Shown: in pieces, positions 3,586-18,802 of the stretch
Layout of the letters: every line of letters starts with the position of its first letter
Numbering within the stretch: position 1 is the first letter of the stretch
From: a phage
DNA length: 20,833 bases
Assembly (NCBI GenBank): GCA_012060505.1
Contig: GCA_012060505.1_3027.1
Strand: one strand, 5' to 3'
The notes under the pieces: generated by a model
What the model saw: the letters and a program-made list of their open reading frames with translations, nothing else
Told to the model about the DNA's origin: nothing
Databases searched by the model: none
Made by a program: the position numbers and the translations under genes

Positions 3586-3611
3586 TTTTGTTCTCCGAGA
3601 TGTTTAATTGC

Positions 3612-3651
3612 GGTACAGGTATATAATATCATATCCTGTACCAAAGTAAAC
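3612..3651 (-). promoter_or_regulatory. T4 early-type promoter upstream of the 30.7-like ORF, with the -10 inside an 8-bp inverted repeat
   Basis: Minus strand aaaataattGTTTAC-17 nt-TGaTATTAT; inverted repeat GGTACAGG...CCTGTACC flanks the -10. Confidence 0.6.
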
Positions 3652-3653
3652 AA

Positions 3654-3986
3654 TTATTTTACTACTTTCCAGTGCTTCATGTCAAGTTTACCAACTTTTT
3701 TCATCTTCTCAATCAAACGTTCGGCGCGTTGGCGAGCTGTAACATAATACCATTCACCTAATTCATTTTGTTCAATTTTTCCAACGATTACTGTATTCAA
3801 TTCATAAATCCAACCAGTAAAGAAATTATGAACTTGAATTGTAAAGGTGAAATCTGTTCCCATACCTTCTGTTGTTTCTACTTCAATAATATCACCTTCA
3901 ACTGCCATTAAGAACCACATAGTTTCGTTATATTCACCATTGAAGCATTTAGCTTTAACTGCAGCGTTCAGATTAATCGTTTTCAT
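3654..3986 (-). CDS. Hypothetical protein, 110 aa (position of T4 30.8)
   Basis: ORF track; ATG preceded by AAGGAG; lies just downstream of a terminator plus promoter. Confidence 0.6.
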   Translation of the reverse strand: MKTINLNAAVKAKCFNGEYNETMWFLMAVEGDIIEVETTEGMGTDFTFTIQVHNFFTGWIYELNTVIVGKIEQNELGEWYYVTARQRAERLIEKMKKVGKLDMKHWKVVK

Positions 3987-4011
3987 TTTATTCTCCTTTG
4001 TTTGTGTAAGA

Positions 4012-4044
4012 TAATACTATCACAAAGGAACCATACTGTAAACA
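4012..4044 (-). promoter_or_regulatory. T4 early-type promoter upstream of the 30.8-like ORF
   Basis: Minus strand GTTTAC-18 nt-TGaTAGTAT, just after the terminator; inverted repeat CCTTTGT...ACAAAGG reaches into the Shine-Dalgarno. Confidence 0.45.
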
Positions 4045-6433: not shown

Positions 6434-6768
6434 TTCATAATCACCAGATAAGCAGATTTAGCAGTTTCAACACGATAAATTTCGTGACGAAGTTTAGTTA
6501 TACTTTTAATAACAGAACTAATTATATTCTGCCCATCTTTAAAGCGGTTTTTCTTGTCAATAAAAATTGCGCCAACCATCTTTTTGTGAAGCTCAACTGG
6601 ATACTTCGTCACAATAATAGCATCATATACAGAAGGATGAATACTATTTACTAGAGTGTCATTCATTAAAGTTATTCTAATGAACTGTGCTGTTTCAGAG
6701 TCAAGCGCTCTATGATCGCCAGTATCATTTTCAAGACAATTATCAATTATATCAGTTAAATTCATCAT
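6430..6768 (-). CDS. Hypothetical protein, 112 aa (position of T4 cd.1)
   Basis: ORF track; tandem ATG ATG start; ATGA overlaps. Confidence 0.55.
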   Translation of the reverse strand: MMNLTDIIDNCLENDTGDHRALDSETAQFIRITLMNDTLVNSIHPSVYDAIIVTKYPVELHKKMVGAIFIDKKNRFKDGQNIISSVIKSITKLRHEIYRVETAKSAYLVIMK

Positions 6769-7004
6769 AGTACGCCATACACCCTTTGTGCTTCAACTAA
6801 TCCATCAAAATCTAATTTAAGATGCGATATTTGATCGCCATCACCTGGATTCACAATTACTAATACTGAACGAGGAGTTTCGGTAATAACACGAACCGAT
6901 GTTTCAGGAAATCGTTCAGAAACCTTATTTACTAATTCCTGCGCAAATAGTTTAACTTTTTCTTGGAATTCTTTAACAGTAATTGGTTTTTCACTTAGCA
7001 GCAT
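6765..7004 (-). CDS. Hypothetical protein, 79 aa (position of T4 cd.2)
   Basis: ORF track; ATG preceded by GAGGAAA; early-type promoter upstream. Confidence 0.55.
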   Translation of the reverse strand: MLLSEKPITVKEFQEKVKLFAQELVNKVSERFPETSVRVITETPRSVLVIVNPGDGDQISHLKLDFDGLVEAQRVYGVL

Positions 7005-7025
7005 TTTGTTTTCCTCATTTGTTTG

Positions 7026-7064
7026 GTAGAGCTATAATATCACAACTCTACCGTAAAGTAAACT
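7026..7064 (-). promoter_or_regulatory. T4 early-type promoter upstream of the cd.2-like ORF, with the -10 inside a 7-bp inverted repeat
   Basis: Minus strand GTTTAC-18 nt-TGaTATTAT; inverted repeat GGTAGAG...CTCTACC flanks the -10. Confidence 0.6.
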
Positions 7065-7065
7065 A

Positions 7066-7341
7066 TTAAATTGCTTTGAATTCTGCTGTCTGCGATTCAA
7101 AACGAATATCGCCTTTGATGACTAGCTCAGCATCAAGACCGAATACGACAATGATATGCGCGGAACCTGGATACAACGTAATAGCAATAGAATCCACCTG
7201 GTCTGGAAGCAAAGTGTTCAATACATGAGTCACTTGAGCATGGATTCGAAGTTCAGCGGCGTTATCAAGCTTTTCAAACATATTATTAGCGATAATTTGA
7301 CTAAACACTACTTCTACGATTTTAGAATAAGTCGGAAACAT
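7066..7341 (-). CDS. Hypothetical protein (position of T4 cd.3)
   Basis: ORF track 7066..7371 appears to start at TTG; moved to in-frame ATG at 7341, which has a GAGGT Shine-Dalgarno. Confidence 0.5.
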   Translation of the reverse strand: MFPTYSKIVEVVFSQIIANNMFEKLDNAAELRIHAQVTHVLNTLLPDQVDSIAITLYPGSAHIIVVFGLDAELVIKGDIRFESQTAEFKAI

Positions 7342-9462: not shown

Positions 9463-9812
9463 TTAGAAAGGTCCTGGATGTCTTCTGCGAACTTGTTGAA
9501 GGAGTTGTTGATTTGTTTTTCAACCAATCCTGGCTTACGAGCCACCACATCCGCCTTCTTTGCATCTTTGCGCAGTTTTTCATTTTCACGCTCAATAGCA
9601 GCAATCGCCTCACGATTTTTATTATTCATCGCATCAATATAATTATACTGAATTCGCAAATTATTTAATGCTAAGGCGTTTTCATTGGCCGTTTTTGTAA
9701 TTTCAGTAACTGATGTTTCTAATCTTTCTACCTTATTTTTTAAAATAATAGATGTTCCGCCAAATGCTATTACAAGTAATAGCAATCCAGCTGTAAAATT
9801 ACTTACATGCAT
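9459..9812 (-). CDS. Inner-membrane spanin (i-spanin), 117 aa; T4 pseT.3 equivalent
   Basis: Single N-terminal transmembrane helix (FTAGLLLLVIAFGGTSIIL) followed by a charged, heptad-like periplasmic region; start overlaps the alc stop. Confidence 0.7.
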   Translation of the reverse strand: MHVSNFTAGLLLLVIAFGGTSIILKNKVERLETSVTEITKTANENALALNNLRIQYNYIDAMNNKNREAIAAIERENEKLRKDAKKADVVARKPGLVEKQINNSFNKFAEDIQDLSK

Positions 9813-10309
9813 AAAGTTTTAATAACCTCTATAATATCGTCTTGAGAAAGACCGTTAATTAAAATATGATGTTCAGCCGGAGATTTAGAAATTTTAAAGC
9901 ACGCCGCAACATCTTCTGCCATATCCGATGCGCTACGATTTGGATTACTAATTCCAAGACGATGCTTTCCAGTCAAAGGATTAACGATGATATAGCATTT
10001 ACAGCTATTAATGTGAACATTAGGTTGAGTCTGATTAATGAATACTTCACAATCGTATTTCGCAAACTGATTTTCTAAAAAGACTTTCATCTCCTCAACC
10101 GCATCGGGAAGCATATCACGGGCTTGCTCAAGACGACGATTTCGATATTCTTTAGTGGTCGTTTTCCGCTTGACTTGCTTAGCTAAATCTTTCTTAAGAT
10201 CGGTGATATATCCAACTCGACGATTTCCTTTGAATACAGAAATCCCATCTGTAGTATCACCGTATGCTTCAACGACCATTTCAGTAGTAATAAGCTGCAA
10301 ATCCATCAT
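9803..10309 (-). CDS. alc: Alc, host transcription elongation inhibitor
   Basis: MDLQLITTEMVVEAYGDTTDGISVFKGNRR... matches recollected T4 Alc; tandem ATG start, may be 10306. Confidence 0.85.
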   Translation of the reverse strand: MMDLQLITTEMVVEAYGDTTDGISVFKGNRRVGYITDLKKDLAKQVKRKTTTKEYRNRRLEQARDMLPDAVEEMKVFLENQFAKYDCEVFINQTQPNVHINSCKCYIIVNPLTGKHRLGISNPNRSASDMAEDVAACFKISKSPAEHHILINGLSQDDIIEVIKTLCM

Positions 10310-10310
10310 A

Positions 10311-10368
10311 AAGTCCTCATGTTATGTCAGTAAGACTACTATAACACAACATGAGGGACTTGTAAACA
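10311..10368 (-). promoter_or_regulatory. T4 early-type promoter upstream of alc, inside a 13-bp inverted repeat that includes the alc Shine-Dalgarno
   Basis: Minus strand GTTTAC-AAGTCCCTCATGTT-gtgtTATAGTagtcttactgacat-AACATGAGGACTT-t-ATG; 13/14 arm match with one bulged C. Confidence 0.6.
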
Positions 10369-11985: not shown

Positions 11986-13164
11986 TTAAAAGTATTTTTT
12001 AAAACTCATCATAACTTTATCATCAACATCATTATCAATCTGTGCAACAAGATAAGATGACAGCTCTACTTCTTGCGGTGCAGATTGAACATTATCAGAA
12101 TTAAGATATTCACGAATCCAAGGATATGGATGTTTAACCGGAGCATCGGTAATTGGGCATGGAAGACCACACTGTTTCATACGAGATACAGTTAAGTAAT
12201 CAATAAAGCTCCACATGCTATTTGTATTTAATCCAGGAACATCGCCATCTTTAAATAAATGAACTGCCCAATCTTTTTCTTGGCGGTTAACTTCCATGAA
12301 AATATCAACTGCTTCTTGTTCACACTCTTTGGCAATTTTAACCCATTCATCACCATCAGTACCGGATTGAAGTTGACGAATAATATATTGTGTACCTTTA
12401 AGATGAAGCTGCTCATCACGTGCAATAAATTTCATAATCTTCGCATTACCTTCCATGATTTCCATGTTCTTATGGAAGTTGAAAGTACATGCAAAGGATA
12501 CATAAAAACGAATAGCTTCCAGAGCATTGATAACGTGCAGACAGAGATAAAGCGACTTCATCAGGTCTCGTTTACATTCTTCCAAATGAGTGAGACTGTT
12601 TGAATATGCTTCTAAATCATATTCATTTTCAGCAAAATAACTAAAGTTTTCTTTGGCGTTTTCCCAAATACGTGTCTTGTCCAGAACATCATCATAATAA
12701 CGACCAATAGATTCAGCACGTTTCATGATAGCTTTATCTAATACAATCTCATCAAATACCTTTGACGGATCAGTATAAAGATTTCGCATAATATGAGTGT
12801 ATGAACGACTGTGAATGGTTTCACTAAAAGTCCATGTAGCAACCCATGTATCAAGGCTTGGGTCTGAAATCAATGACATAAGTACAGCAGACGGTGCACG
12901 ACCCTGAATGCTATCTAGAAGTGATTGATACTTCAGATTATTAGTAAAAATATTTTGCTGATACTGAGGAAGCTTATTAAATTGCGCAGCATCCATCATT
13001 AAGTTTACTTCTTCAGGACGCCAGAAAAATGACAACTGCTTTTCGGTTAAATCTTCAAAAACTTTATGACGTTGAATATCATAACGCGCAATACCAAGAC
13101 CTGAACCAAAAAACATAGGTTCTTTTAAAACATCAACTGGATTTGTATTAAAAACTGTGCTCAT
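11986..13164 (-). CDS. nrdB: Ribonucleotide reductase class Ia small subunit, uninterrupted
   Basis: 392-aa continuous ORF, ferritin-like R2; position after nrdA. No intron-like interruption. Confidence 0.9.
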   Translation of the reverse strand: MSTVFNTNPVDVLKEPMFFGSGLGIARYDIQRHKVFEDLTEKQLSFFWRPEEVNLMMDAAQFNKLPQYQQNIFTNNLKYQSLLDSIQGRAPSAVLMSLISDPSLDTWVATWTFSETIHSRSYTHIMRNLYTDPSKVFDEIVLDKAIMKRAESIGRYYDDVLDKTRIWENAKENFSYFAENEYDLEAYSNSLTHLEECKRDLMKSLYLCLHVINALEAIRFYVSFACTFNFHKNMEIMEGNAKIMKFIARDEQLHLKGTQYIIRQLQSGTDGDEWVKIAKECEQEAVDIFMEVNRQEKDWAVHLFKDGDVPGLNTNSMWSFIDYLTVSRMKQCGLPCPITDAPVKHPYPWIREYLNSDNVQSAPQEVELSSYLVAQIDNDVDDKVMMSFKKYF

Positions 13165-13215: not shown

Positions 13216-15480
13216 TCATAATTTACAGGATGAACAATCTTCAGCTTTTGGAGTTTCTATTTCATAATCATCAGTACCAGAACCATCACGGGTATTATGA
13301 TAATAGAAATTTTTAATGCCATAATACCATCCGTATAGCATATCATCAATCATTATTGACATTGGAACCTTTCCTTTTGGAAAAATCTGTGGGTCATAAT
13401 ATGTATTCGCTGAAGCTGATTGACATACCCATTTCAGCATAATAGCTACCTGCGTAAGATAAGGTTTATTACCTTTCTTAGCTAATTTCCATGTATAATC
13501 ATAAAGGTCTATGTTATGCTCAATATTGGGCACGACTTGATTAAAGGAGCCCTCTTTTGATTCTTTAACAGAGACTGGTCCACGTGGAGGCTCGATACCG
13601 TTTGTACTGTTAGAAACTTGGGAAGATGACTCACATGGCATAAGTGCTGATAATGTGCTATTACGGATGCCAAAGAGCTTAAGGTCTTCCCGCAGCGACG
13701 ACCAGTCACAAACGTATTTTGGAGCTGCGATTTGGTCAATCTTTTTATTGTACCAGTCGATAGGTAATTCGCCTCGAGACCAACGAGTGTCTGAATAATA
13801 TTCACAAGGTCCTTTTTCTTTGGCGAGCTTAATGGATGCTTTAATGAGTCCATACTGTAATCTCTCAAATAGTTCATGTGTTAAATCGTTAGCATCTTCA
13901 TAAGAAGCAAAGTTACTTGCCAGCCAAGCTGCATAGTTGGTAACACCTACACCAAGGTTACGACGCTTTTTAGCTTTTTCTGCTTCAGGAACTGGATATC
14001 CTTGGTAATCCAAAAGATTATCAAGAGCGCGAACTTGAACTTCTGCCAATTCATTAATTTTATCTTGGTCTTGCCAGTCAAAATTATCTAGTACGAATGC
14101 AGAGAGAGTACACAATCCAATTTCAGCATCAGGACTATTCACATCATTTGTTGGAATAGCAATTTCACAGCACAAGTTACTCTGGCGAATAGGTGCCTTT
14201 TCACGAATAAACGGAGTGTAGTTATTCGTATTATCAATGAACTGCACATAAATCCTTGCTGTTCCTGAGCGTTCAGTCATGAGCAATTCAAATAGTTCAC
14301 GGGCTTTAATACGCTTTTTACGAATATTAGGGTCTTTTTCTGCAGCTTCATACAATTCACGGAAACGGTCTTGGTCTTTAAAATAAGAATAATAAAGCTC
14401 TCCGCCCATTTCATGGGGACTGAACAAAGTAATGTAATCGTTCTTTCCAAAACGTTCCATCATCAAATCATTCAGTTGAACACCATAATCCATATGACGA
14501 ATGCGGTTTTCTTCTACACCTTTGTTATTTTTCAAAACGAGAAGATTTTCAACTTCCAAATGCCAAATAGGATAATAAGCAGTAGCAGCGCCGCCACGAA
14601 TTCCACCCTGTGAACATGATTTAACTGCAGTCTGAAAATGTTTCCAGAAAGGAATAACACCAGTATGGCGTACTTCACCCATGCCAATCTTAGAACCTTC
14701 GGCACGAATCATACCAACGTTAATACCAATTCCAGCGCGTTTAGAGATATATTCAACAATTGAAGCGGAAGCCTTATTGATAGACTTTAATGAATCACCT
14801 GCCTCAATAACAACGCATGAACTAAACTGTCGAGTCGGAGTACGGCAACCAGCCATAATAGGAGTTGGCAATGAAATCTGTCGAGTAGATACTGCTTCAT
14901 AAAAACGGATAACGTGTTTTAATCTATCAACAGGTTCATCTTGATGCAATGCCATTCCAATAGTCATAAATGCAAACTGTGGAGTTTCATAAATTTGACC
15001 AGTGGTTTTATCTTTAACTAGATATTTTTCTTTTAATTGCATCGCCCCGGAATAAGTAAATTCCATATCCCGCTCGTGCTTAATTTTTGATTCTAAAAAT
15101 GTAATTTCTTCTGCAGAATATTTTGACAACAATTCAGGGTCGTATTTACCTTCATTTACACAGTAAGAAATATGGTCAATAAATGAACGTGGTTCATACT
15201 GCCCATAAACATGCTTACGAAGAGCAAACATTAAACAGCGTGCAGCTACATATTGATAATCAGGTTCTTCAACCGAAATAGAATTCGCAGCGGCCTTAAT
15301 GACAATAGTCTGAATATCATCAGTTGTCATTCCATCACGGAGATAAGATTTAATATTTTCATATAATTCATAAGGATCGACTGATGTTCCTTCAGCTGCC
15401 CAAGATAAAACTTTAATAATTTTTTGTGGGTCAAAGCTCTGAGAAACACCACTACTTTTGATAACATTAATTAATTGCAT
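13216..15480 (-). CDS. nrdA: Ribonucleotide reductase class Ia large subunit, 754 aa
   Basis: Length matches recollected T4 NrdA; active-site region NLCCEIAIPT and C-terminal Cys pair (CSSCKL) typical of class Ia R1. Confidence 0.95.
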   Translation of the reverse strand: MQLINVIKSSGVSQSFDPQKIIKVLSWAAEGTSVDPYELYENIKSYLRDGMTTDDIQTIVIKAAANSISVEEPDYQYVAARCLMFALRKHVYGQYEPRSFIDHISYCVNEGKYDPELLSKYSAEEITFLESKIKHERDMEFTYSGAMQLKEKYLVKDKTTGQIYETPQFAFMTIGMALHQDEPVDRLKHVIRFYEAVSTRQISLPTPIMAGCRTPTRQFSSCVVIEAGDSLKSINKASASIVEYISKRAGIGINVGMIRAEGSKIGMGEVRHTGVIPFWKHFQTAVKSCSQGGIRGGAATAYYPIWHLEVENLLVLKNNKGVEENRIRHMDYGVQLNDLMMERFGKNDYITLFSPHEMGGELYYSYFKDQDRFRELYEAAEKDPNIRKKRIKARELFELLMTERSGTARIYVQFIDNTNNYTPFIREKAPIRQSNLCCEIAIPTNDVNSPDAEIGLCTLSAFVLDNFDWQDQDKINELAEVQVRALDNLLDYQGYPVPEAEKAKKRRNLGVGVTNYAAWLASNFASYEDANDLTHELFERLQYGLIKASIKLAKEKGPCEYYSDTRWSRGELPIDWYNKKIDQIAAPKYVCDWSSLREDLKLFGIRNSTLSALMPCESSSQVSNSTNGIEPPRGPVSVKESKEGSFNQVVPNIEHNIDLYDYTWKLAKKGNKPYLTQVAIMLKWVCQSASANTYYDPQIFPKGKVPMSIMIDDMLYGWYYGIKNFYYHNTRDGSGTDDYEIETPKAEDCSSCKL

Positions 15481-15797: not shown

Positions 15798-16014
15798 ATT
15801 GTTCTTCCGTTAAAACAGTAATATCGTAGTAACAGTCAGAAGAAGTTTTAACTGTGGAAATTTTATTATCAAAATACTCACGAGTCATTTTATGAGTATA
15901 ATATTTTTTGCCATAAATGATAATAGGCTGATTTGGTCCTGGAACTTCTAACTCGCTTGGATTAGGAAGTGTAAAAAGAACTACACCAGAAGTATCTTTA
16001 AATCGTAAAATCAT
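15751..16014 (-). CDS. Hypothetical protein (nrdA.2-like by position)
   Basis: ORF track 15751..16026 appears to start at TTG; moved to in-frame ATG at 16014. Overlaps the downstream ORF by about 47 nt in another frame. Confidence 0.45.
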
Positions 16015-16034: not shown

Positions 16035-16895
16035 TTACACCGCCATTTTTCCTTTAATTGGCGGATGAGATACATAGTTGTTAAGAACAAAATTATGAGG
16101 CTTTGCAAATTGACTCAACCAAAATACCTGCGATTCTGTGCCCCATTCATCAAATTCATCTGGAAATTTTAATTGTAATTCGCATAAATCCATAGGTTCA
16201 CGACATAAAATTTCTTTACATTGTTCTACGTGATTCATATAGATATGAGTATTACCACCAGAAAATATCAAATCTCCCGGAATAAGATTACACATCTTAG
16301 CTACAATATGAACTAACGTAGCATATGATGCAATATTAAATGGAAGACCGAGGAAAACATCTACCGAACGTTGATACCACTGAAGGTCAAGGTATCCATT
16401 ACGCACATTAAACTGATAGAACATATGACAAGGCGGTAATGCCATATATTTAAGTTCAGCTGGATTCCACGCAGAAACAATTTGACGCCTATCATTTGGC
16501 AGTTTTTTAATACGATCAATAACTTCTATAATTTGATCTACACCGCCAAAATCACGCCACTGTTTTCCATAAATTGGACCAAGTTCACCGCTATGGTATC
16601 CTAAATCTTTTGCTTGATTTTCGTAATTTTCATCCCAGACTGTTTTGCCTTGAATTAATGAATCATGTTGAATTAATCGCAAATCATTGACATTTGTGCT
16701 TCCTGATAAAAACCATATTAGCTCAGCAATGCATGCATTCCAGGCGAGCTTTTTAGTTGTTACTGCAGGAAAACCTTTGGTTAAATCCCAACGCAATTTA
16801 GTACCGAACAGAGCAATTGTTCCTGTGCCCGTTCGGTCATCGGTTTCATAGCCATTTTCAAAAATGTCTTTAATTAAATCTTGGTATTGTTTCAT
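16035..16895 (-). CDS. td: Thymidylate synthase, 286 aa, uninterrupted
   Basis: ThyA active-site motif PCH ([11 protein letters not shown]); one continuous ORF of the length recollected for T4 Td, so no intron and no I-TevI ORF. Confidence 0.95.
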
Positions 16896-18500: not shown

Positions 18501-18743
18501 TCAGACAGACTTTTTCACAATTTTCCAATCAGCTTTAAACTGATCAACGTCAGAATGGTAAATCCAGAATCCTGCGCTTTCTCCGTCTTCATAAAGAGGA
18601 CATCCATCGCATTCATCTTCCCATCCCATATCACGTAAAAGATGTTCAGCTTTTTCAATGAGTTCAGAATCTTTACCGATGATATTAAAATACCATTTAC
18701 CTCTAACTTCTGAATCTTTAATGCTCTGGCGTTGTAATCTCAT
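18501..18743 (-). CDS. Hypothetical protein, 80 aa; first gene behind an early-type promoter
   Basis: ORF track; ATG preceded by GAGGAG; promoter GTTTAC-N18-TGaTACTAT about 30 bp upstream. Confidence 0.55.
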   Translation of the reverse strand: MRLQRQSIKDSEVRGKWYFNIIGKDSELIEKAEHLLRDMGWEDECDGCPLYEDGESAGFWIYHSDVDQFKADWKIVKKSV

Positions 18744-18765
18744 TTTATTCTCCTCAGTAGTTGAT

Positions 18766-18802
18766 AGGGTAATAGTATCACACTACTACCCTGTTGTAAA
18801 CA
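18766..18802 (-). promoter_or_regulatory. T4 early-type promoter upstream of the three-ORF cassette 17889-18743
   Basis: Minus strand aaaaataattGTTTAC-18 nt-TGaTACTAT; inverted repeat AGGGTA...TACCCT flanks the -10. Confidence 0.6.

Follow-up and report, generated by a model that had tools for sequence, protein, structure and literature searches.

The element at positions 7025-7063 of the minus strand is almost certainly a known T4 early promoter that lies within a dyad under selection. The window in which it was found, i.e., the whole stretch of DNA that was analysed (20,833 nt; assembly GCA_012060505.1, contig GCA_012060505.1_3027.1), belongs to a Tequatrovirus, and this region shares 98 % identity with many genomes of that genus. 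A sequence-only reading had proposed that a promoter nested in a palindrome serves the cd.2-like ORF, and this was borne out: the promoter is the orthologue of the T4 early promoter Pe133295, and the dyad is non-random and covaries. The composite of a T4 early promoter and a PeSL-type element is already described and is not new. Taken as a whole, the element is probably a sigma-70 early promoter whose dyad would give an insulating or stabilising hairpin on read-through RNA only, and which forms part of a PeSL cassette at an indel boundary.

The minus strand is the sense strand for all the genes in this part of the window. The gap between the cd.3-like ORF (stop codon TAA at 7068-7066) and the cd.2-like ORF (ATG at 7004) measures 61 nt and is wholly occupied by the element; on the minus strand it reads TA GTTTAC TTTAC GGTAGAG TTGTGATATTATAG CTCTACC AAACAAAT GAGG AAAACAAA ATG. 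Its parts and their surroundings are:

7064-7088, minus strand: AT-rich stretch 5′ of the -35 element, in an UP-element-like position, overlapping the 3′ end of the cd.3-like ORF.
7063-7058, minus strand: -35 element GTTTAC in the T4 early-promoter form, with the sigma-70 hexamer TTTACT at 7062-7057; invariant in 11 orthologues.
7052-7046, minus strand: 5′ arm GGTAGAG, lying within the spacer, roughly from -25 to -19; pairs with 7025-7031.
7045-7032, minus strand: 14-nt loop of the DNA dyad, TTGTGATATTATAG, which holds the extended -10 (TG at 7042-7041, TATTAT at 7039-7034).
7031-7025, minus strand: 3′ arm CTCTACC, spanning the discriminator and the predicted transcription start.
7052-7025, minus strand: RNA hairpin predicted for sense read-through transcripts, with 12 pairs (7052-7041 with 7036-7025), 3 of them G.U, and the loop AUAU at 7040-7037.
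7002-7016, minus strand: Shine-Dalgarno (SD) sequence GAGG (7016-7013) and ATG (7004-7002) of the cd.2-like ORF, outside the hairpin.
6765-7004, minus strand: cd.2-like ORF (DUF7320).

The order given in the earlier reading, i.e., GTTTAC, an arm, TGaTATTAT in a 14-nt loop and the second arm, was seen as described on the minus strand; the coordinates proposed for it, 7026-7064, were one base off, and the distance of about 20 nt claimed between the downstream arm and the SD had to be corrected, since the arm ends 8 nt before GAGG. The -10 is 17 nt from the SD, and the stem ends 21 nt before the AUG. On the other side, 2 nt separate the cd.3 stop codon from GTTTAC, and 13 nt separate it from the hairpin. 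The 25 nt upstream of the -35 contain 72 % A+T, compared with 64 % for the window; the enrichment is modest, and the 3′ end of the cd.3 coding sequence falls in the same stretch. From the usual spacing of sigma-70 promoters, transcription is predicted to start at about A7027, 7 nt past the -10.

The promoter motif, TTTACT-17-TATTAT with a TG, is that of a strong sigma-70 promoter and has the T4-type early form, (G)TTTAC(A/T), a spacer of 17 ± 1 nt, TGn and TAnnnT, and its parts match the T4 early-promoter class as described in a review of T4 prereplicative transcription (PMC2988021). In T4 itself an identical element lies between cd.3 and cd.2 (T4 133330-133290), with identity from GTTTAC through the end of the 3′ arm. 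The T4 GenBank record AF158101 carries at 133300-133313 a misc_feature whose 14 bases are exactly the loop, and whose text reads 'inverted complement of previously reported sequence; corrects the early promoter Pe133295 between cd.2 and cd.3'. This note, together with the identical sequence, identifies the cd.2 promoter as the catalogued T4 early promoter Pe133295 ('PE 133.3'). The neighbours (cd.3 and cd.2) and the UP/-35/TGn/-10 make-up are the same in both phages, and no substantive difference was observed: the leader is one A shorter in the window, and cd.2 starts with ATGCTG in the window and with ATGTTG in T4. The literature searched yielded no genome-wide map of T4 transcription starts, and a search on cd.2/cd.3 returned no relevant papers.

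The window holds a sibling of this element, which lies at the promoter of gene 30.7:

3612-3651, minus strand: sibling element, with GTTTAC at 3651-3646, arms GGTACAGG (3642-3635) and CCTGTACC (3619-3612), and TG plus TATTAT (3628-3623).

The claim that both elements have the same architecture held for the shared design and for the nearly identical arms; it failed for the loop of the sibling, in which the 8-bp arms enclose 15 nt rather than 14 nt. The arms had been said to differ by one or two positions, and over the 7 shared positions a single difference was found, which is compensated in the partner arm (C:G versus G:C). The sense RNA of the sibling folds at -19.4 kcal/mol (z -5.7), T4 carries an identical copy upstream of gene 30.7, and across 14 loci the 30.7 arms are invariant bar one G.T change. 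The pattern GTTTAC-N14-20-TATTAT occurs in the window only at these two elements (2 occurrences, 0.03 expected), and the arms of both account for 4 of the 5 occurrences of GGTASAG (1.5 expected). The longest exact run common to the two copies is about 10 nt, so that recombination between them is not evident.

Whether such a dyad exceeds chance was judged on the T4 genome. Once assembled, it yielded 41 candidate early promoters of the GTTTAC type, of which 39 lie on the early strand. At 7 of these 41 promoters the -10 is flanked on both sides by perfect arms of at least 7 bp: ipII (14 bp), mobD.2 (13 bp), ipI (10 bp), dmd (9 bp), 30.7 and ipIII (8 bp each) and cd.2 (7 bp). When the spacer and the downstream sequence were shuffled in 2000 trials, the mean was 0.26 promoters and the maximum was 2, so that the enrichment amounts to 27-fold. 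In this null a 7-bp perfect repeat arises around a given -10 in about 0.6 % of the promoters, and genome-wide 1.4 % of the T4 TAnnnT sites reach 7 bp. In addition, 17 of the 41 promoter regions folded as RNA with z <= -3. The T4 arms fall into at least four unrelated families (GGTAsAG, GACAAGAyT, AATTGTGA and TGATGAGGTA), and paralogous arm pairs were observed for GGTAsAG, GACAAGAyT and AATTGTGA.

We then compared 11 orthologous copies of the cd.2 element, from Tequatrovirus, Mosigvirus, Dhakavirus and Gelderlandvirus. These were taken from the phage GenBank collection, which supplied the diversity, as a single-protein locus search of IMG/VR returned close relatives only. The -35 (GTTTAC), the TG, the -10 positions and the SD are invariant; differences occur in the spacer, in the arms and in the leader. 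As for the 12-pair stem, 93.9 % of the cells in the alignment are paired, and 3 pairs, all at positions free of promoter constraint, show double-sided compensatory changes. Neither the pairing nor the covariation was matched by any of 500 shuffles, the paired fraction fell to 26-62 % when the partner was shifted by 1-3 columns, and RNAalifold independently predicted the same stem from the alignment. The Dhakavirus arms are GGTAGGAC/GTCCTACC and those of Gelderlandvirus AGGGTTA/TAACCCT; outside the arms, the homology of both copies is clear. The genera in which cd.2 overlaps the preceding gene have neither the intergenic space nor the element. Furthermore, the orthologous promoters of RB69 keep hairpins, often with quite different arms. 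The automatic T4-RB69 promoter alignment was noisy (50-60 % identity), and its reading was confined to six loci, those at which both phages have strong hairpins; the cd.2 promoter was outside this scripted set and was inspected by hand. The palindrome is thus real and non-random, and it is kept by covariation.

The folding of the dyad was then considered for RNA and for DNA. The sense RNA folds into GGUAGAGUUGUG / UAUAGCUCUACC with the loop AUAU at -16.3 kcal/mol (z -4.2), a value reached by none of 200 shuffles, and the antisense RNA folds at -9.6 kcal/mol. This sense-strand advantage is largely due to G.U pairs of the TGTG / TATAG segment, on which the promoter consensus itself imposes a constraint. 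Among the 11 sequences, the one-sided changes in the 9 outer pairs without promoter constraint gave 9 G.U cells versus 1 A.C cell, a suggestive excess that stems from few independent events. In the six T4/RB69 promoter pairs in which both members fold strongly, there were 3 one-sided changes of the G.U type and 3 of the A.C type, and with such a balance the strand-specific signature is weak. We therefore lean towards a role in RNA on the grounds of the predicted energies, and take the strand signature as no proof of it.

The alternative that the dyad acts as a DNA structure, by extrusion of a cruciform or hairpin that exposes the -10, by supercoiling-tuned melting, or as a structure-specific target (e.g., of endonuclease VII) that makes a recombination hot spot, appears unlikely. 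The covariation preserves pairing over sequence, as a DNA structure would also require, the balance of G.U-type and A.C-type changes between T4 and RB69 is in keeping with it, and some of the T4 siblings, with perfect arms of 13-14 bp and loops of 8-10 nt, could extrude. The cd.2 copy is a poorer candidate: as ssDNA its two strands fold at -5.3 and -4.9 kcal/mol (z -2.1), 6-7 of 200 shuffles being as good, and this marginal folding makes its extrusion from duplex DNA unlikely. Seven perfect pairs around a 14-nt spacer are far from extruding at physiological supercoiling. In addition, the Mosigvirus copies have a G.T within the arm, or just 6 pairs. The old T4 clone record X03007 has exactly this loop inverted, which shows that the repeat, as DNA, is able to bring about a strand switch. 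A naturally invertible loop (a 'flip-flop' -10) was rejected, however, as a loop-inverted synthetic 80-mer was best matched by X03007 alone, the 663 other records were normal, so that the flipped loop occurs in no natural genome among the 664, and an exact search of IMG/VR for it gave no match. Recombination targeted at stem-loops was also proposed by the authors who described the PeSLs (PMC2839356).

Some promoters work through DNA hairpins. Those for the virion RNA polymerase of coliphage N4 (early promoters) and Frpo of the F plasmid use an extruded or single-stranded DNA hairpin, with a dedicated polymerase or a reconstituted -35/-10. The cd.2 element resembles them in that an inverted repeat is tied to a promoter; it differs in that its duplex carries a complete sigma-70 promoter and its DNA hairpin is weak.

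The arms could instead be the half-sites of an operator, bound over the -10 by a dimeric phage or host DNA-binding protein that shuts the early promoter off, which we consider very unlikely. The geometry would suit such a protein, with arm centres about 21 bp (two helical turns) apart and the -10 at the centre of the dyad. Arms of the GGTAsAG type are common to the two promoters of the window and otherwise rare, and the 30.7 arms are invariant in sequence between Tequatrovirus and Mosigvirus while their flanks diverge; moreover, the explanation of how T4 early promoters are shut off is incomplete (PMC2988021). Against this, there is no candidate protein, the T4 arms belong to at least four unrelated families, and the orthologues of other genera change the arm sequence and keep the complementarity, which is the signature of a structure and not of one protein's site. 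The variety of arm families in T4 and the behaviour of the orthologues make a single sequence-specific dimeric protein unlikely.

In a translational switch of the kind found at T4 e, soc, 49 and I-TevI, the hairpin would mask the ribosome binding site on read-through RNA, so that cd.2 would be translated only from its own promoter. In T4, some promoters do lie in a 5′ strand that belongs to an inhibitory helix, and as in the cd.2 element the promoter lies in the DNA of the 5′ strand, so that the long transcripts fold and the promoter-proximal ones do not (PMC3014915). In those genes, however, the helices hold the SD and/or the AUG and the promoters are late or middle (PMC3014915), while at cd.2 the promoter is early and both signals are outside the helix. 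The cd.2 stem ends before GAGG and AUG, which remained unpaired in the MFE and centroid folds as well as in the folds of all 11 orthologues, and sequestration of the cd.2 ribosome binding site was therefore discarded. With the SD and the AUG outside the helix, the cd.2 hairpin is not a mask of this kind, and a switch of this type is highly improbable here. The description suits other promoters better, namely the neighbours at 10366 (alc) and 4042 (30.8), where the spacer and the SD downstream of it form a pairing of -23.4 and -12.1 kcal/mol, respectively, and several other T4 early promoters with the same pairing; the two neighbours resemble the e/soc/49/I-TevI class.

That the dyad has no function, being a by-product of the origin or spread of the cassette (duplication, gene conversion or hairpin-templated mutation) or a palindrome arisen by chance in AT-rich DNA, was already disfavoured and is scarcely credible, for although the inner stem TGTGA / TATTA is partly self-complementary through the promoter consensus and the cassettes have clearly been duplicated and moved between loci, this reading has against it the enrichment over the shuffle null, the compensatory double changes at pairs free of promoter constraint, and the persistence of hairpins at orthologous RB69 promoters with entirely different arms.

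A further comparison is with intrinsic terminators. The cd.2 hairpin is like them in being a stable, intergenic RNA hairpin right after a stop codon, and unlike them in lacking a U-tract and in having an upper stem rich in AU and G.U pairs. No U-tract is found 3′ of it, where AAACAAAUGAGG follows, and a terminator scan of the window did not return the element; without a U-tract, the hairpin is not a canonical intrinsic terminator. The form of such a terminator, a GC-rich stem with a U-tract within 0-2 nt, was seen at none of the 7 palindromic T4 promoters. Two terminator-like sites of the window (4093-4072 and 19850-19832) are quite different in look from the cd.2 hairpin. A search of the whole window against Rfam 15 gave no match above the gathering threshold.

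The spacer and the discriminator/start region are the stretches of a sigma-70 promoter with the least demand on base identity. In the mechanism that we propose, the dyad overlays the promoter there, with the 5′ arm in the spacer and the 3′ arm in the discriminator/start region. Initiation at the promoter itself would fall within the 3′ arm (at about A7027) and would give a short, unstructured, A-rich leader; a transcript that starts inside the 3′ arm cannot form the hairpin. A polymerase coming from the alc promoter (about 10366) through pseT and cd.5-cd.3 would copy both arms, and its RNA would form the 12-bp hairpin. The terminator scan detected no terminator-like site on the minus strand from 10366 to 7063, and as the next upstream early promoter is the one at about 10366, read-through into the element is plausible and indeed to be expected. 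The hairpin would then act as an insulator on the read-through RNA, either by attenuation, or as a barrier that would fix and guard the 3′ end of the cd.3 message and screen the cd.2 message on its 5′ side. To this part of the reading, in which read-through transcripts are the place where the dyad functions, as an RNA hairpin, we give somewhat less than an even chance.

At other T4 early promoters the place that the hairpin would fill is held by a separate terminator hairpin. Of the 6 T4 early promoters with a canonical terminator no more than about 45 nt upstream, 0 have a strong promoter hairpin, compared with 17 of the 35 that lack such a terminator (Fisher p = 0.03, Mann-Whitney p = 0.10), an exclusivity that depends on 6 promoters. 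This agrees with the view that the hairpin embedded in the promoter may act on the incoming RNA in place of a separate one. A wider and more tentative proposal, which we regard as rather doubtful, is that this is a general design: at about 40 % of the T4 early promoters the 17-nt spacer would encode the 5′ arm of a hairpin, and the 3′ arm would be provided by the discriminator/start region or by the downstream SD. Such a general design of spacer-encoded hairpins has had no systematic description so far.

The element also fits a class of mobile cassettes. Arbiol et al. (2010) described the PeSL of phages RB49 and phi1 as an intergenic AT-rich region with a sigma-70-like promoter, a stem-loop, and an SD plus ATG, the stem-loop lying mostly in the interval from the -35 to the -10 or overlapping the -10 (PMC2839356). 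For examples from RB49/phi1, promoter activity and a strong terminator-like or attenuator activity were shown, as were recombination between copies and mini-circles; the T-even analogues, first seen at the IP loci, are built on T4 early promoters and have weaker, AT-richer stems (PMC2839356). Comeau et al. (2014) brought PST and T4 into the PeSL class, gave the consensus TTTACW-N17-TAYWAT and related the elements to ORFs in which these two phages differ (PMC4122927). The cd.2 element, TTTACT-N17-TATTAT, fits this T4/PST consensus (PMC4122927). It is intergenic, between a stop codon and an SD plus ATG, and it has a stable stem-loop that overlaps the -10. It is also repeated in the genome, as is typical of the class, whose copies lie preferentially among small non-essential ORFs; this is attested by the sibling at 3612-3651 and by the 7 T4 promoters with arms of at least 7 bp, a survey that recovered the IP loci named in that work: ipI, ipII and ipIII (PMC2839356).

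The variable ORF was observed as well. In PST, ECML-134 and MLF4-type phages, ORF213 (175 aa) is located right after the SD of the element and before cd.2; it is absent from T4 and from the window. A single copy of the element flanks this indel, and Dhakavirus has an arrangement related to the ORF213 insertion of PST. The cassette GGTAGGAC...GTCCTAyC occupies different loci in RB69 and in MN04 (Dhakavirus), which agrees with cassette shuffling. The RefSeq record of PST has no annotated PeSL features. Judged by the published definition, the cd.2 element fits as one copy of the PeSL cassette family, having in common with it the AT-rich region, the sigma-70-type promoter, the stem-loop over the -10, the SD plus ATG, the repetition and the adjoining variable ORF. 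There are also differences: the stems of the RB49/phi1 PeSLs consist of a G-run and a C-run and were assayed as strong terminators, whereas the cd.2 stem is AT-richer and has no U-tract. Furthermore, according to a figure legend of 2014 the stem-loops of PST lie 'just upstream of' the promoter (PMC4122927), while the cd.2 arms bracket the -10.

This element leaves the known picture of T4 transcription unchanged. For annotation, it marks a predicted transcription start of the cd.2-cd.1-cd unit and a boundary of ORF gain and loss in T4-like genomes. The comparison across genera indicates that selection acts on the pairing of the hairpin in these promoter cassettes. The hairpin apparently stands in for separate terminators, and the long-standing, thinly tested 'terminator/attenuator' role of the PeSL stem-loops thereby becomes testable. 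If the general design were true, every early cistron would exist in two isoforms, folded when produced by read-through and unfolded when produced from its own promoter; the spacer-encoded hairpins would be RNA-level insulators that replace stand-alone terminators, and this would account for the 'extra' conservation in the spacer and start-region sequences of the T4 early promoters.

Base pairing between the promoter spacer and the sequence downstream of it is predicted at three promoters of the window:
10312-10366, minus strand: early promoter GTTTACA-17-TG-TATAGT, before the alc-like ORF (9803-10309)
3990-4042, minus strand: promoter GTTTACA-17-TG-TAGTAT, before the 30.8-like ORF (3654-3986)
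18750-18800, minus strand: promoter GTTTACA-17-TG-TACTAT, before the frd.1-like ORF (18501-18743)

At the alc promoter, pairing of the spacer (AGTCCCTC...) with the leader that follows extends over the Shine-Dalgarno (SD) sequence (…ATGAGGACT), with a predicted energy of -23.4 kcal/mol, and the SD of the alc-like ORF would be sequestered on a read-through RNA, i.e., one that enters from upstream, and free on the promoter-initiated RNA. The arrangement of the alc promoter is identical in T4, where spacer-leader/SD pairing is also present at the alt.-3 promoter. At the 30.8 promoter, which lies 30 nt beyond a canonical terminator-like hairpin (4093-4072), TTCCTTTGTG in the spacer pairs with CACAAACAAAGGAG, SD included (-12.1 kcal/mol). 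The spacer of the frd.1 promoter (GGGTAGTAGTG) pairs instead with its own -10 hexamer plus TACCC; the resulting stem has 11 bp, is capped by a triloop and has an energy of -15.2 kcal/mol, and its outer ends, GGTA...TACC, are common to the frd.1 element and to the promoter-in-palindrome elements that precede cd.2 and 30.7.

The 14-nt hairpin loop of the cd.2 element was located in three sequences:
Window 7032-7045, minus strand: loop of the cd.2 element
T4 genome (AF158101) 133300-133313: T4 loop
X03007.1 (L040) 71-84: loop in the older record of a T4 pseT clone

In X03007 the loop is in the reverse orientation (GGTAGAG CTATAATATCACAA CTCTACC), which would put TATAAT just 13 nt from GTTTAC and thereby kill the cd.2 promoter. 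The flipped loop was absent from 663/663 other phage records, and it was not found in a search of IMG/VR. The flip is likely to be either a strand-switch inversion that was selected when this strong, toxic promoter was cloned, or an artefact of gel reading.

Many Tequatroviruses (MLF4, ECML-134 and PST, where it is ORF213) carry a 175-aa ORF, without a Pfam match, between the SD of the cd.2 promoter and cd.2 itself:
L004, 918-1507; PST (L046), 598-1125; also in L034: 175-aa ORF insert

The junction of the insert lies between GAGGAAA and ATG, and the end of the ORF overlaps the start of cd.2. Dhakaviruses have a similar ORF at the same place, ahead of cd.2; T4 and the window are without it. The window differs from T4 in the following region:
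11986-13164, 13216-15480 and 16035-16895: nrdB-like, nrdA and td-like genes

Here, neither the nrdB-like gene (392 aa) nor the td-like gene (286 aa) is interrupted, nrdA directly follows nrdB, and no group I intron was found with Rfam in the window; thus, this phage lacks the td intron, the nrdB intron and the mobE/nrdB.1 insert, all of which are present in the corresponding region of T4.

Among 41 T4 early-promoter candidates (L029-L032), a small sample from T4 alone, a fold energy <= -14 kcal/mol was found in 0/6 promoters with a canonical upstream terminator vs 17/35 without one (Fisher p = 0.03), so that promoter-embedded hairpins and such terminators look mutually exclusive in T4. Two of the palindromic T4 promoters stand out by their arms:
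T4 65798 and 66497 (L030, about 15860-15900 and 16560-16600): ipII and ipIII promoters

Their arms are AATTGTGA ... TCACAATT, with an 8-nt centre. This arm sequence corresponds to the outer half-site of the symmetric lac operator and contains the CRP half-sites TGTGA/TCACA, a match that is probably a coincidence.

A further promoter-like site lies near the 30.7 element:
3656-3685, minus strand: sigma-70 promoter-like site TTGACA-18-TAAAAT, 11/12 near-consensus

This site falls in the 3′-terminal part of the 30.8-like ORF, 35 nt ahead of the 30.7 promoter element, and could represent either a second promoter in tandem or a chance occurrence in AT-rich DNA. The SD of the 30.7-like ORF (3595-3600) has GGAG in the leader, followed by an A-rich stretch, whereas the SD in the cd.2 leader (7013-7016) is GAGG. 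In early mRNAs, the T4 endoribonuclease RegB cleaves at GGAG; hence, judging from these leader sequences, the messages from the two sibling promoters may differ in their sensitivity to RegB.
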